Source: Octopus sinensis (Eukaryota). From it: a stretch of 64,000 bases of DNA. The notes beneath the pieces are model-generated. The model had not been told where the DNA came from and made no database searches. It saw nothing but the letters and a program-made list of their open reading frames with translations. The position numbers were made by a program, and so were the translations under genes. Position 1 is the stretch's first letter; each line of letters begins with the position of its first letter. Shown in pieces: positions 1-11,300 of this stretch. The DNA lies in assembly GCF_006345805.1 (NCBI RefSeq), contig NC_043004.1, positions 28,768,001-28,832,000 of the forward strand, written 5' to 3'.

Positions 1-1307
1 CAGCTGCAATTTCCATTGATGTTGATCAACTTCGATTTTGGTTCTGCTTTCTGATATCTGATTTGATTTGGTTTGATTTTGATTTTGATTTTCACTTGCC
101 TCAAAGAGTCTTCACAAGTGGAGTTTTGTGTCCCAAGAAGGAAAGGTATGTATAAGTCGACTGGCTACATACCAAGCAGAGGCCACGGGTTATGGTCTCA
201 CTAGTCTTCTCACGCACAGCATACTTCCAGAGGTCTCGGTCTCTAGTCATTTCCTTGGTGAGACCTAAAGTTCGAAGGTCGTGCTTCACCACCTCGTCCC
301 AGGTTTTCCTGGGTCTACCTCTTCCACAGGTTCCCTCAGCTTCTAGGGTGTGGCACTTTTGCACGCAACTATCTTCAGCCATTCTCGTCACATGACCATA
401 CCAGCGCAAACGTCTCTCTTGCACACCACAACTGATGCTTCTTAGGTCCAACTTTTCTCTCAAGGTACTTACACTCTGTCGATTATGAACACTGACATTA
501 CACATCCATCGGAGCATACTGGCTTCATTTCTTGCGAGCTTACGCATATCCTCAGCAGTCACAGCCCCTGTTTCACTACCATGTAGCATGGCTGTACGTA
601 CACATGCATCATACAGTCTGCCTTTTACTCTGAGCGAGAGGCCTTTTGTCACCAGCAGGGGTAAGAGCTCTCTAAACTTTGCCCAGGCTATTCTTACTCT
701 AGCAGTTACACTTTCAGCACACCCACCCCCGCTACTGACTTGGTCACCTAGGTAGCGGAAGCTATCCACTACTTGTTTTTCTCCCTGGAACGTGGTAGAA
801 GTTGGTCTCTGCACATTTTCAGCGTTTATTGCTCCTGAGCATCTGCCAGACAAAATCTATTTTCCTAGTTAGCCTTCCTTTGACATTGCTACACCTCTTA
901 TGTGTCCATAGCTTACACTTGGTGCACCTTGTAGAGTTTCTACCTACGCCTTTTTTACAGATCGAGCAGGACCATCTACCTGAAGGCGTTTGTGATTGGT
1001 CTAGATTCCTACTTATTAGGACTTTGGTTTTGGCTAGGTTGATTCTAAGGCCCTTCGATTCTAAACCTTGCTTCCACACCTGAAACTTCTCCTCCAGTTC
1101 TGATAGTGACTCAGCAATTAGAGCAAGGTCATCAGCATAGAGGAGCTCCCAGAGGCATCCTGTCTTGAATTCCTCCATTATTGCCTGGAGGACTATGATA
1201 AATAGGAGGGGACTGAGGACTGAACCTTGGTGGACCCCAACCTCTACCTGGAATTCTTCACTGTACTCGTTGCCAACCCTCACCTTACTAGCAGCGTCTC
1301 TGTACAA
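1..1307 (-). mobile_element. RTE-clade LINE, 5'-truncated, RT C-half plus ORF end and start of 3'UTR, one frameshift
   Basis: GVHQGSVLSPLLF, LLYADDL, FRYLGD and [12 protein letters not shown] motifs in ORFs 819..1307 and 101..853. Confidence 0.93.
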
Positions 1308-1399
1308 TGAAAATTGCCCTGGCTGGTTGCCATTTTGCCACTGACAATGACGTCATAGACACTGTAGGAAGTTCCTTAGAGTCTCAAACAAAAGAGTTT

Positions 1400-4334: not shown

Positions 4335-5393
4335 CTAACTAACACTAGCTATCTCTGTCTTTGATGCATTTCCATTCATTTTTATTGATTTCTCCTTATT
4401 AACATCTCCAGTGCCATCTCTTTTATTAGATCGAGCTGTAGGTCCTGTGCATGGATCAACAATTTTATTACCATTGATCATAGTTTCTAGTTGTTTCTTA
4501 TTGTCAAGTTTCTGGCAGAATGTATTTTCTTGTTTAGACATTCCTTTTGAAGTTACTCTGCAGTGACTTGAGCATCCTTGTATAGGTTTACTAGCAGAAG
4601 AAACAGCAACACTTTTTTGATTACCATTAGTTTGGAAACATTTTTGTGGAATATTTTGTGGCATCTTCTGCCAATTATCTTGAGAATTCTTCGGTCCATA
4701 GTTGTGAGTAACCTTTATTGAATTAGTTTGCATTACACATTGTGCATTAGTTTGGTTTACTTTTGGAAGTGACATTTCGTTGTTTTGGGGAAAGTTACTC
4801 GGTTGAAATTTCTGAAGTTGTGATGTCCTTTGCATAAGCACAGGCAGAGGTTTCTGAAAATTTGCAATGGACATTCTTTGAGGATTGAGTGATACAGAAT
4901 TAGGTAAAGATTTGGGAGCTATAACTTGAGGTCTTTGAAAGATTTCAGGGGGTTTGGGTGCAATAAGCTGAGGTGTTTTGAGAGTTTGCAAAGTTTTCTG
5001 ATTATGACTATGTTTAGTTGAAGGTGGTGGTTGAGTAGGTTTGTGAAATACAGCATTATCACTGCATGGCCTCATTACAGAGCTGCTATTGGTTGTTGTT
5101 TCAGTGCAGCTAGCATTGGTACGTACAGTAGTTGTGACAACAGTGGTAGTAGTTGGTGTTGGAGTGGTCAATTGAACAGTAGTGGCAGTAGGTGTTAAGA
5201 CAGTTGAAGTTTTTGTCACATGTGGAACAGCTGCTGTAGTATTTGTTACAGTGTTAGTGACACTAGTAGTGGACACTGACAGCTTCAGTTTTTCTTTCAC
5301 ACTTCTGTTTTCAGAGACAGTTTCTGTGTTAGACAGTTTTGGTTTCTTAGCACTATTTTCAAACACAGAATAGAAGAGTCGCAATGGAGCATT
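4335..5393 (-). CDS. BMI1: BMI1-like terminal exon: NAPLRLFY plus a long T/P/Q/N/K-rich disordered C-terminal region
   Basis: Acceptor cttttgcag; open for 352 codons to TAG at 4337-4335; ORF track 4335..5441. Confidence 0.9.
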   Translation of the reverse strand, partial: NAPLRLFYSVFENSAKKPKLSNTETVSENRSVKEKLKLSVSTTSVTNTVTNTTAAVPHVTKTSTVLTPTATTVQLTTPTPTTTTVVTTTVRTNASCTETTTNSSSVMRPCSDNAVFHKPTQPPPSTKHSHNQKTLQTLKTPQLIAPKPPEIFQRPQVIAPKSLPNSVSLNPQRMSIANFQKPLPVLMQRTSQLQKFQPSNFPQNNEMSLPKVNQTNAQCVMQTNSIKVTHNYGPKNSQDNWQKMPQNIPQKCFQTNGNQKSVAVSSASKPIQGCSSHCRVTSKGMSKQENTFCQKLDNKKQLETMINGNKIVDPCTGPTARSNKRDGTGDVNKEKSIKMNGNASKTEIASVS

Positions 5394-8300
5394 CTGCAAA
5401 AGACATTTCAGTAACATATTAATCATAAATGCCAAGTTCAATCACAGATTGCTTAAAAATTTTTTAAATGGATTAAAACACACAATTCTGTCTTTCACAA
5501 AGCAATCAGATAAACATCACAAATACCATTAAATATCAAAAGTAGCTCACTTTCCTTAAAATATCAAACAAGCTAGAAACTGAATCCACAATTTATTATA
5601 GTTACAGAATGTAATTTATCGGCTTTAATCTAACAAAGCTATATGAGATTAATGAAACACAGAGTAATTACCTATAAATTCTGTATACTAGTGACAATGT
5701 TAACTTTAATCACTTCAACCAATGTGACATTGTATTGAAAATCTTAGTATAAGTTTATGAGTTCACTATGGCAGGATTTTCACTCAAAACACATACTACT
5801 AAATAACACTAATTTAAACATTCTACATCAGCATTCAGCTACTGTACTTTATTTCATAAAACTGAAATACACTTCAGATGCTGACTTCCTGCCAAGTTAG
5901 AACAGTGGACCGAAGCCTATAATATATATATATATATTGTAGCTTGATCTTCCACAAATAGCAGCTAAATTCCTACATAATATTCTCTACTATCTTTACA
6001 GCTTAATGTTGTAACCTTGAATATACTCTGCCTGAAAAGCAAAAGTACAAAATGGCCATTGCTAAAATGGCTTTCATCACAGATTTACATATCAGTTTCA
6101 ATTTCACTGATCTCAGGAGGCCTATAAACAGTGGTGGACTGGCCAGGTTGCCGATTTGCCTGATGGCAAGTGGGACCCTGCAACATTAGAATCCATATAT
6201 GGGGGCCCATTCCCTCAAGTTTGAGAATTTTTTATTCACTCCTGGAAGAATGCATTAATTGTTTCAGCCTGGCTGTGTTTGTAGACAGTTGAAAAGAATA
6301 CTTTTAACAAAAAAAAAAATAAAATAAAAAATAAATGATAGCATTGTAGTTGCAAGTGGGACCCCTTAGTCTCCTGGCAAGACCCAGCCCACCACTGCCT
6401 ATAAAGGTTATAAGTACAGTTGCTTCCTCTAGGCTAAACTATTAAAAACATGTTAAAACAATTATAGAGAATGGTTATAGAAACTTACCCGTCTCCAGGT
6501 ATAAATGTAAGCAATATCAATCAAAGTGTAGTTGTCTTTCAGTGGTTCATCAGAATGAAATATGTGAATCTGCGCAGACAAGCAATTATCATTAGAAACA
6601 GTGAAGATAGAATGAAGACCATCAAAAACAAAAGAGCACAAAACTTTGTAGACAAACTAAAAACAAAACATTCCTTATTTCTTGGCTGTTGATCTCTCAT
6701 TATTGCTGTTATTTTTTTTTCCATTTCTTCAACCAACAAAAAAATTGGTAAAAAGGAGATGGCCAAATAAATATGGTATAGAAATGCCAGTTTTTAATAT
6801 TAATAATACAAACAATGCTAAAAAAGCAATACAGATATATTAATCACTATCATGATTGATTACATTGGGGAACATGGTTTTCATTATCTGGTGTTGGAGG
6901 CATATCCGCAGGTAATTTTGGAGTTGCTGATTTCAAAAATGAAATCCATTTTGCTCTATCATATCAATATTTTTACAAACTCAAATATCTATTTTGCAAC
7001 ATTTCCAGTATTGTAACCATTTTAAAAAATAGATATGAGTTCATCAAATGCAAACCCATGTATAGAGATTGACATAACTTTGAAACATAGTTTTTCAATA
7101 TTGTTTAAAGTAAATGCAATTACAAAAAGTGTTGAGGAAAGATTCCAACCACCCCCAAGTAACTAAAAGTGGACTGATATATTACTCTAAAATAAAGAAC
7201 TGTCAGTAGTTCAGGGTAAGAAGTTCACTGTGAGCCACTGGCAGAGAGCATTTAACCTTGTGTAACAGTAATCATTGAGCATTGTGTGACGTTCCCTGTT
7301 CAATACTTGCTGGCAATGTATAAATATGGTCTAAAAAGATGAAGAATTTGTCACCTATGCAGGGGTTGTTAACCCCAGATATGTTTAAATGTCTAATTTT
7401 TGTTCAAGGGCTAACTGCAAGCAAAGGTGCAGATATAGGTTGCCAGATATTAACAAAATTAGAACAGGACCAAAAATTAACTCTACAGGCAGTAGCAGAA
7501 GAATGCCGGAAGATTACAAATCTAAGATATGACACAGATAAAACTGAAGAGAAAGATTGCTCTCATATTCATGTGTCAATCGGTAATGGACAAGAAAAAA
7601 GGAGAAAAATGTCAAAACTGAATCCATGTTATGGGTGCAGTGGTCTACATGTTTAAAGTAACTGTTTAAAAATATAAAATGCTTCAAGTGTGGTAAGATA
7701 GATCATAAAAAATCATACTGTAAAACAAAAGCTAAAAAACAGTTCAACTGAAAAAATCACGTAAACAGGTTATTGGTGACAAGAAATATGAACAACCCTC
7801 AAAGGAAATTTGTGTATGTAAAAATTAGCGACACAAACATAAAGTTACAATTGGATACGGGCAGTGATATCTTGATAATGCAGATACATGGAAAAAAATC
7901 TGGGGACCTAGATTAAAAGAAACTTTGAAAATTGCATGTGGTATTTCAGGAAAAAAATTACATTTTAAGGGCAAAATGATAAATGGCATTACATTTTGAG
8001 GAAATATCTTAAAAGCCAAAGTTTTTGTGTTGAATAATACAACAAATTTATTCAGAACAGACTGGATACAATTATTTAACTTATGGGACCTACCTATAAA
8101 TTTTTTCTGTAAAAATGTGAATGATTTTTCTGCTGGAACAAATAAGTTGTCAGACGAATTAAAATAAAAAATTTAAAACGATTTTTCCTGAAGTTTTGTC
8201 TGATGAATTAAGTCTGTGCGCCAAAACAAAGGTGACTTTTCAAGTAAAAGAAAATGCTATACCGATATTTAAACCAAAACAAACTGTACTTTTCACAGTG

Positions 8301-11300
8301 TTGAAACAAGTCAATGAAGAATTGGATAGTCTTGAAAAGCGTGGAGTTGAAAAAATTGATTATGCTGAATGGGCATCCCCAACAGTTTATATGAAGGAAA
8401 AAAAACCCAATAAAATCCAGGTATGCGCGAATTATCTAACTGTTTTAAATGAGTGTTTGATGACACATAATAACCCACTAGAAAGTGCAGAAGAAATTTT
8501 TGCAAACTTGAATGGAGGAAAATTTTTTTTGAAGTTGGATTTATCTGAAGTATATGTGCATGTAAGTTGAAGAGTGTTCAAAATTATCAACAATAAACAC
8601 TCATAAAGGATTAGATGAATTTAATAGACTTCTTTTGGTATAAAGTTAACACTGGGTATTTTCCAACAAGTCATGGATACTATGCTTGCTGGTTCGGATT
8701 TCATGATAGCCTACTTGGATGAAGTACTCATAAAAAGCATATCCAGGGACCAGCATGTTGAACATGTAAAATATGTAAAGTGTGAGATTTAGAAATGTAT
8801 TATTTCTATTTTCAAAAATTGGTGAATGCAATTCACTTGAAATATATGTTTTCAAAGGAGGATAGACATTGACAGCTAGCAAGCCATGCTACTCCAGACT
8901 GATGATGAGCAATGACTCTGAAACTAGTCCCTGGTTGCTGGCTTTGCAGGGTGGAGGTGCTTGCCTCCACTTTGAAAACATAAGGACACAAGAAATGTGT
9001 CAAGTCCAACAGGAAACAGTAGCATCCTTCCCTTTCATGGGACTGTCACATTAAGTTGACAACATACTATCACTTTATCATGTTGCTACTGTATAATTCT
9101 CTCTGAGAGATTTAGAAATGTGTTATTTCTATGTAAAATATGTGTTTGAAAAAATAGCTTCACTTTGAGTGAGGAGACGTGTGAATTCTTACCTAAAATA
9201 AAATATTTAGAGCAAATCATTGGTAAAAATGGACATCAACTAGTTCCATCAAGGGCAGATACAATTAACAATATGGCTCCTCCAACAAATGTATCTACCT
9301 TACAAGTTTTTTGGGGACTGACAAACTGTTACCAAAATTATATACCAAATATGCCTAAGGTAAGAGCTCCACTAAATAATCTACTAAAAAAGATGCTAAG
9401 TGGAGTTGGTCTGAAAATTGTCGGAAGGCGTTTGACAAAATTAAAAAAATATCAACATCTGATTCACCCGTAGCACATTTTGATCCTGCAGTAGAGATTA
9501 TATTAGCTTCAGATGCCTCTGAGTATGGTATTGGAGCAGTAATGCAACATAAGTATAAAGATGGTAACATGAAGGCTGTGGTTCGTGCTTCCCATTCTCT
9601 GCTACCAACAGAGAAAAATTATGGCCAAATTGAAAAAAGAGGCCTTAGTGATTACTTTTACCGTAAAAAAAAAATTTTGTAGATTTTTAAATGGTAGAAA
9701 TCTTTGACTACTGACTGATCATCGTTGTTATTATGGGTCGAAGAAAAGAATCGTTACTCATACTGCTAATAGGTTGCAATACTGGGGTACTATATTACTA
9801 AACATGGATTTTAACTGGAGTATATTACCATCTAAGAAATTAGGACATGATTGTTTATGAAGACTAATTTCAAAAAATGTTGAACAGTTTGAAGACACAG
9901 TGACTGCTGTGTTGCAGAAAATGAAATTAAAAATGTTTCATGTAACATCATACATGAACTGTCAGTTACATTACAAGACATAAAATTAAAAGCAGAATAC
10001 AATCAATTCATTAAAAAAAAAAGGAAAGAAATGCTGAGGACTAAAAGAGATAAAAATAGGCATTTTTCTGAATGTGTGACATTCTCAATGCGTGACAATG
10101 TGTTGATGTAAGCACAAAGAGTTGTAGTGCCAGCCATACTACAGAAGTGATTACTAAAGGAATTTCACATTGGTCACCCAGGGATTTCGAGAATGGAATC
10201 ATTAATGAGAAGTTATGTATATTGGCCAACAATTGACCGTGACATTGAAGAACTAGTGAAAGCATGCCGAGGGTGTGCCCTAGCTGCAAAAGCACCTACC
10301 ACTAAATGGCAACCATGACCCAAAACATATTCCATGGTCCAGACTGCATGTTGATTATGCAGGCCTACTTAAGGGTTCATATTACCTTGTGGTGGACAGA
10401 ATTTCAAAGTGGCCTGAAGTGCATAAGTGTAAAAAGCCAACATCTGCAGTTACCTTAAGTTTTTTACACGAATTGTTCACCAGATATGGTATTCCTGATA
10501 CCATTGTGACTGATAATGGAACTCAGTTTACTTCAGATGAGTTCAAAAAATTTGTAAAATGATCATTATCAAGTGTGGCCACGGATAAGTAGAGCATTTT
10601 GTTGACAATTCTAAGATGCCCTTAAAAATGGCGAACAATGAAGTAATGGATGACCTTGCACTTCAACAATTTCTAAGAGTGTACTGAGTAACACCTAATC
10701 CAAATACCCTGCCTGGAATGTCACCTGTGGAATTGATGTTTGCTAGAAACATCAGATCCATCTTTGATAAGCTGATACTGAGTGAGAATAGAAAAAGGCG
10801 AACAACAAATATACTTCAGTTCGGTGACACAGTCTTTTTTAAAACCTGTAGACAACCTAAAGAAAGCTGGGAGGATGGTGTAATTATTAAACAAATTGGA
10901 AGAATGATATTCCTAGTAAAAGGAAAAAATGTCGAACATAAAAGACATACAAACCAACTTACGAATGGAAACGCTGGAATTGAACCCTAAGCATAAGAGA
11001 TATTAAAACTCTGAGTGGAGTTTAATTCTAAAAAGGGGAGATGCTGTGGAAGGATTCTGACACCCCCAAGTGACTAAAAGTGGACTGGCACATTGCTATA
11101 AAATAAAGAACTGTCAGCAGTTCAATGTGAGCTGCTGTCAGAGAGCATTTAACCTTGTGTAACATTAATTGTAGTGCATTATGTGAACACCTTTTTTCCA
11201 CTTCATTAAATTATTTATCCAACACCAAGATATTAAAAAAAAAAGTTGAAACAAAAATATCTTCAGTAAATAAAAAGCATTGAACTTGAGCAACTTTCAC

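Follow-up and report, generated by a model that had tools for sequence, protein, structure and literature searches.

A dispersed non-coding hammerhead element of Octopus sinensis, likely inserted by a Penelope-like enzyme

The insert at 8777-9132 of the window (the whole 64,000-nt stretch of Octopus sinensis DNA analysed here) is one old copy, truncated at its 5' end, of a non-coding element that has a unit of 348 nt, is dispersed in the genome and contains a predicted type I hammerhead ribozyme; a Penelope-like reverse transcriptase (RT)-endonuclease likely inserted it in trans. Penelope mobilisation of the family is well supported. The family has no open reading frame (ORF) and yet bears the Penelope end signature, from which we infer mobilisation in trans; a sequence-only reading of the window had proposed as much, and the proposal is now strongly backed by twin fixed 3' ends, head-to-head inversions and target site duplications (TSDs) of 8-14 bp. 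The mobiliser of animal retrozymes had previously been argued from co-occurrence or pLTR homology; here the signature sits at the insertion ends of ORF-less elements, and the end statistics make the Penelope mechanism testable.

The window insert, its family and its ribozyme

The features of the window discussed below are as follows.

8777-9132, +: whole insertion; ~1.08 turns of the 348-nt unit, preceded by 4 untemplated bases and ending at site B
8766-8776, +: left TSD (11 bp, gtaaaatatgt); 8764-8776 if extended to 13 bp
9133-9143, +: right TSD (11 bp); 9131-9143 if extended to 13 bp
8781-8809, +: terminal redundancy, first copy; second copy at 9104-9132; 27/29 identical, period 323
8880-8948, +: type I hammerhead with extended stem I; predicted cut at 8929/8930
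8998-9130, +: conserved multi-branch RNA domain, made up of a closing stem, inner hairpins and a tail hairpin, that contains both insertion ends
9068-9080, +: site A, the first of two sites at which copies preferentially have their 3' end; it covers unit positions 310-322, with 319 at window 9077
9125-9132, +: site B, the second preferred 3' end, ~55 nt downstream of A; unit positions 19-38; Penelope-like 'tail'
7324-10990 (bounds approximate), +: decayed Gypsy-like LTR retrotransposon pol in ORF pieces, the insertion target
4338-5393, -: 352-codon stop-ending ORF, T/Q/P-rich, with an acceptor-like start; looks like a terminal exon

The insert at 8777-9132 with its 11-bp TSD had been recognised from the letters alone and stands, and the TSD extends to 13 bp by two further bases that are common to the TSD and the element end. 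The terminal redundancy, first described as a 26-bp repeat at a 323-bp period, is likewise real and spans 29 nt, whereas the 323-nt unit read from it is not that of the family: the majority unit of this family, F1, is 348 nt long (GC 39.7%), and the window copy has a period of 323 because it lacks 23 nt (at 9014/9015) and another 2 nt of this unit. The copy further differs from the family majority by 20 substitutions in 349 and contains no inverted piece. For its 323-nt unit, the fold energy is -101.5 kcal/mol (z = -5.6), a value that none of 100 shuffles reached. The junctions of the insert are each spanned by a contig from another organism, two organisms in all (8692-8819 with 9 differences, 9102-9385 with 0), so the insertion is older than at least one lineage split. 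In two contigs, related Gypsy sequence jumps over the stretch that contains the insert, with unknown letters in between, and may represent an empty site. We regard the window copy as an old, probably inactive passenger.

As had been anticipated, the insert belongs to a dispersed family and is not single-copy. A first look at the Octopus sinensis genome (2.72 Gb) returned 2483 candidates for F1, 40 of them scored, and the genome holds 63 exact 41-nt hammerhead cores and 307 26-nt cores at no more than 1 mismatch, against 0 for the control. F1 is also present in high copy in four other organisms, and its top copies are ~4.7% off the majority outside CpG sites. The loci divide by subfamily into groups of 67 and 18 (L022 left out). 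One F1 subfamily (L221-L250) has C.A for U.U at the base of stem II and frequently ends in TA repeats. Unit positions 14, 182 and 308 (A/G) and 278 (C/T) are highly polymorphic, lie outside CpG and show weak linkage; on the ribozyme strand a U precedes each of the three A/G sites, where fixed A-to-I editing of templates is a possibility.

A sister family, F2, has a 358-nt unit that is identical to F1 in 232 of 377 columns (62%). It is represented by L196-L220, L136:4954-5270 and L279, numbers 3353 first-look candidates, is often inserted in TA repeats and has a hammerhead of its own, with C.A at the stem II base and a CCGG loop III. Family F5 (L253-L277, 874 candidates) has the domain that contains sites A and B and a 4-bp stem II, and its hammerhead core usually shows U or C at the position expected to be the conserved A9. 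Further diverged relatives with the same end domain lie at L251:246-734, L199:2195-2328, L064:2875-3004 and L267:2277-2407, with a period of 360 for F6.

The hammerhead core motifs of the window copy are where the sequence-only reading placed them (CTGATGA at 8899-8905, GAG/CTC, GAAA at 8920-8923, palindromic ACTAGT, and GTC ending at 8929). Its label 'minimal', however, has to be withdrawn, as the architecture is canonical type I by the criteria given in the accessible portion of PMC4209133, namely a helix I of ~6 bp, a helix II of ~4 bp and a short helix III with a palindromic loop. In the family ribozyme, proximal stem I is 6 bp long and has a UAC/U internal loop, stem II consists of U.U plus 3 bp closed by a hexaloop, and stem III is palindromic, with 2 bp and a 2-nt loop. 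It thus departs from the Penelope min-HHR, with its helix II of 7-8 bp, helix I of 4-5 bp and poorly defined loop 1. The family loops presumably resemble the tertiary contacts of Schistosoma.

CUGANGA, GAAA and NUH in type I order are the majority state of 34 F1 and 29 F2 motifs, which were selected on the core itself. Between the majority states of F1 and F2, 7 pairs are altered on both sides (four in stem I, one in the stem III loop and two distal), which strongly supports the ribozyme fold and supplies the compensatory pairing expected of a hammerhead. Within F1, conservation of the core does not significantly exceed that of the other positions (15/522 vs 570/12070, p = 0.055). The proposed check against Rfam Hammerhead_1 came out negative: a scan of window 8000-10000 gave 0 matches at E<=1, loci L004 and L018 gave none to Hammerhead_1 at E<=10, F5 reached E = 0.0038, below the cut-off, and a genome-wide search yielded 7 matches, all in other families. 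An unrelated hammerhead repeat with inverted copies, above the Rfam Hammerhead_1 cut-off, occurs at L061 and L064-L067, with a period of 431 nt in one locus. The canonical hammerhead at L062:1501-1547 (41.9 bits) has a flank unlike the others among the seven Rfam matches and may be a conserved ribozyme that exists in a single copy.

The window copy keeps 4 of the 6 proximal stem I pairs, and one of the lost pairs adjoins the cut site. Position 8930 is C in the window and T in 30 of the 34 family motifs; the equivalent position is T in 97-99.5% of contig depth in four other organisms. Judged by these changes, the predicted ribozyme of the window copy is probably crippled and likely cleaves poorly or not at all. 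The lowest-energy fold of the monomer buries the core, a prediction that would fit dimer-dependent cleavage; intact family ribozymes would cleave best as dimers. A short reading frame that starts inside the hammerhead, as in PAc, was considered as the remnant of an ORF start and rejected, F2 having C, not U, at the corresponding position.

Insertion ends and the mobilising enzyme

We mapped 86 distinct F1 loci (89 fetched, 3 duplicates dropped), drawn from the top BLAST or exact-core matches and hence a sample biased to long, core-bearing copies. Among the outer 3' ends of these loci, 120 of 142 fall within windows A and B, which together cover 33 of 348 nt, where 13.5 would be expected, while the 5' ends are scattered over the whole unit. 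The permuted end points that had been predicted are therefore found at the 5' side, where ends vary, and not at the 3' side, where they are fixed at A or B. A head-to-head inverted piece occurs in 56 of the 86 loci. When the ends of these inverted copies are paired, with slightly wider A and B windows, 44 combine A with B, 8 combine A and 4 combine B with another end, and neither AA nor BB occurs; the AB pairing in 44 of 44 has p = 6e-14. Inverted copies of F2 behave alike (14 AB and 4 other among 18, 0 AA, 0 BB), which brings the two families together to 58 AB, 0 AA and 0 BB. The absence of AA and BB could also reflect selective loss of such insertions. The 30 plain, uninverted copies end at B (15), at A (12) or elsewhere (3). 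TSDs of at least 8 bp flank 47 of the 86 loci (2 of them microsatellite matches), compared with 2.3% of controls; family TSDs measure 8-14 bp with a mode of 12 bp, and the targets are AT-rich. Inversion joints mostly show 1-11 nt of overlap.

Inverted pieces could also arise if the element were a SINE moved by a LINE enzyme (RTE, CR1 or L1), through L1-style twin priming. The window is rich in LINE-like RT fragments, and TSDs of 8-14 bp with 5' truncation are also compatible with LINE-driven insertion. However, the copies have no A-rich or simple-repeat tail and end at two fixed 3' sites; moreover, inverted and direct pieces have sequence in common, and the inverted one always begins at whichever fixed site the direct one does not use, whereas L1 twin priming yields two pieces from separate parts of a single RNA. 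We consider movement by a LINE enzyme very unlikely. The terminal inverted repeats and TSDs of the inverted copies would suit a DNA-level origin of the inversions and repeats, whether by a MITE-like element, recombination or repair. Such an origin appears to us highly improbable, given that 30 of the 86 copies have no inverted piece, that 5' ends and inversion points are scattered and show short microhomologies, that the two outer ends are unlike (A vs B), and that the ribozyme and fold are strand-specific (-122 vs -99 kcal/mol).

All of the insertion marks of F1 are known from Penelope elements. According to the accessible parts of PMC11167929, a Penelope protein, predicted to be a dimer, cuts and extends both target strands, takes uncleaved RNA as its main template, and starts reverse transcription at two internal sites that lie next to each other downstream of the hammerhead and define the genomic Penelope tail; an inverted 5' copy and a one-ended tail are described as Penelope hallmarks (PMC8557442; PMC3846280). 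Transferred to F1, these properties suggest that a Penelope-like enzyme would bind a conserved domain of the RNA, which begins 90 nt and ends 226 nt downstream from the cut site, nick both target strands ~12 bp apart, and prime cDNA at site B on one strand and at site A on the other. Where both cDNAs were kept, a head-to-head join would result, and where one was kept, a plain copy; the window copy would be plain and B-primed.

Penelope-like copies number in the thousands in the Octopus sinensis genome, and some of them have intact 781-aa RT + GIY-YIG ORFs. One ORF-bearing Penelope-like family in the same genome has two ends, with one of each in 2 of 2 inverted copies, and its RT matches an RT + GIY-YIG protein at 22% over 232 aa (E = 5e-6). 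A search by DNA similarity for an autonomous partner that shares the 348-nt unit gave none in 119 fetched, partly overlapping Penelope loci, which were the best-scored of 5029, 7280 and 8019 candidates and represent a small part of the Penelope copies; a covariance model likewise gave none in the searched subset of Penelope loci. The partner may be unsampled or extinct. L094, L136, L194, L084 and L279 were rejected as partner pLTRs, each case being a separate insertion of a sister element. A young Penelope-like family (L098-L102; intact 781-aa RT + GIY-YIG ORFs, 96-99% DNA identity) shows no hammerhead in a pattern search and no obvious pLTR repeat.

With Penelope sampling thus partial, every insertion mark Penelope-like, and Xenopus retrozymes reported as homologous to pLTRs in the available part of a preprint (bioRxiv 10.64898/2026.07.22.740005), the unit might instead be the pLTR of an unsampled autonomous Penelope element and its copies solo or truncated pLTR fragments. 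The copies themselves argue otherwise. Long copies run upstream of the ribozyme into the previous turn of the unit, and past site B they continue into the unit and never into an ORF. L001-L060 have no common foreign flank at a shared breakpoint, and the family ribozyme is canonical, whereas sampled ORF-bearing elements have short-stem types. The sequence-only reading had set attachment to a Penelope ORF as the mark of an ordinary pLTR fragment, and none of the F1 copies examined runs into a Penelope RT + GIY-YIG ORF. We consider the pLTR origin unlikely and retain a non-autonomous element inserted in trans.

The shared RNA domain and the template

The domain at 8998-9130 is likely the signal for RT recognition and start. 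A covariance model built from F1 and F2 weakly matched it at the right place in F5 (E 0.001-0.2) and F6 (E 0.005), and independent folds gave the closing stem and the tail hairpin in most examples. In the alignment, 93% of cells are paired, with thin covariation, as only 2 of 19 pairs are two-sided. We tentatively propose that at least four hammerhead families of 350-360 nt share this domain and that a dimeric Penelope enzyme may read it asymmetrically, one subunit always priming at A and the other at B, each on one of the two nicked target strands. Such a reading, if true, would identify the class of enzyme that moves animal retrozymes as well as their signal in cis, and would account for Penelope head-to-head inversions and one-ended tails without antisense self-priming. 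The strict A/B pairing constrains the Penelope mechanism, for which the accessible literature offers an older model of antisense self-priming and in vitro work with two start sites that reports no strand difference between them. The shared 130-nt domain also provides a compact template for the published in vitro system.

The 86 loci comprise 146 pieces, of which 97 extend across the cut site and 28 span at least 348 nt. As these cDNAs pass through the cut site and beyond one unit, their template exceeded a cleaved monomer in length, and was either an uncleaved tandem transcript or a circle. A strict retrozyme cycle, in which a monomeric RNA circle is read for more than one round and so gives the terminal redundancy, is a sub-case of the Penelope explanation. 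The unit folds very stably when circularised (-122.1 kcal/mol; z = -8.1 against 60 shuffles), the seam of the unit is crossed by copies just as the cut site is, laps never mix subfamilies (13/13), and RNA circles are demonstrated for coral, mussel and axolotl retrozymes in the available text of PMC7229834. On the other hand, successive laps agree at only 26 of 46 polymorphic sites, compared with 24.6 expected (main subfamily, 16 loci), in a test that is weak, as divergence is mostly post-insertion (8.2-8.3% within loci vs 8.7-9.3% between). Furthermore, the A and B pieces of one insertion agree at 67 of 97 sites against 54.0 expected (p = 0.005), and the two laps of L119 differ at polymorphic sites. 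A first haplotype test of different-template laps (165/204 vs 79/126) was confounded by subfamily and has been superseded by the subfamily-split test. Taken alone, the circle step is possible but somewhat doubtful, and the data lean slightly to a tandem or mixed template.

L119 is the only true dimer among the 86 loci (L022 is a local triplication), so sources with two tandem ribozymes are rare. Similarly, no pair of same-strand cores at unit spacing occurs among the 100 of 307 cores listed, in an assembly that may collapse arrays. In a related organism, three RNA runs, sampled at ~6% of each, contained 471-623 family reads per 11.5-12.9 million on both strands, or ~40-50 per million, with no defined ends. 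These runs show no pile-up of reads at the cut site, although the library may exclude circles; together with the lap counts, they fail to bear out the circular RNA intermediate that had been suggested. A loose end beyond site B (~90 reads per run), tried as partner sequence, has 0 matches in the Octopus sinensis genome and most likely derives from sequence that adjoins a single expressed copy in that related organism.

Relation to known elements and the target locus

With a non-coding unit within 170-400 nt, no LTR, GC below 50% and TSDs longer than 4 bp, we class the family as a non-LTR retrozyme, a kind of element already known, including from mussel (PMC7229834, in the part accessible). It is likened to published retrozymes by form and not by sequence homology. 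The nearest forms in the available text of Cervera and de la Pena 2020 (PMC7229834) are axolotl Rtz_353 / HHR_Amex2 and mussel repeats of 350-390 bp, and the metazoan elements described there share with ours a non-coding unit of ~350 nt, a GC content of 40%, a canonical type I hammerhead, TSDs longer than 4 bp, a highly self-paired fold and the presence of Penelope elements in the same genome. Like axolotl HHR_Amex2 as presented in that text, the family ribozyme has U.U at the helix II base and a 2-bp helix III, though its helix III loop is of 2 nt and not 4. Unlike the retrozyme tandem arrays reported there, the family consists mostly of dispersed 0.3-1.5-mers with inverted heads, with 1 true dimer in 86. 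The accessible portion of a 2020 review (PMC7761336) states that animal retrozymes have no motif pointing to a mobiliser; in contrast, a conserved end domain is common to several families here.

The likeness to EN+ Penelope elements, such as Poseidon PAc, is equally close in the parts of PMC11167929, PMC8557442 and PMC3846280 available to us, and comprises two fixed 3' ends downstream of the hammerhead, a one-ended tail, a head-to-head inverted 5' piece, TSDs of 8-14 bp and AT-rich targets. The family differs from the elements described there in having no ORF, a tail of ~55 nt instead of the published 30-40, a canonical and not a minimal ribozyme, and no homologous pLTR among the sampled Penelope loci. 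As a non-autonomous element that uses Penelope enzymes, it resembles the vertebrate retrozymes of bioRxiv 10.64898/2026.07.22.740005 and Chlamys MRC1 (PMC8557442), again within the accessible text. In this 2026 preprint, co-occurrence and Xenopus pLTR homology are used to argue that retrozymes are non-autonomous Penelope derivatives. Its main text, so far as accessible, covers vertebrates only and no mollusc, and tails, inversions and start sites are absent from it; its detection requires two tandem units, which almost all copies of our family do not have. The giant squid genome paper gives, in its available part, only a count of 235 Hammerhead_1 matches (PMC6962438). Full-text searches of the literature turned up neither this family nor a strict pairing of A with B; Repbase, Dfam and supplements may already list the family.

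The Gypsy-like target is marked on the + strand by YLDE at 8712-8723, read from the sequence, and by Pfam matches to RT_RNaseH_2 (9380-9679) and rve (10284-10559). From the ORF at 4338-5393 (-), the insert would lie in an intron of a putative host gene, in antisense orientation to it; the ORF has no Pfam match, and the ESM Atlas gave for this putative host exon only a 0.78 lead. LINE-like RT fragments are common within the window, and an ORF piece at 822-1352 (-) matches RVT_1, followed by a weak match to a PHD/C1-like zinc finger.
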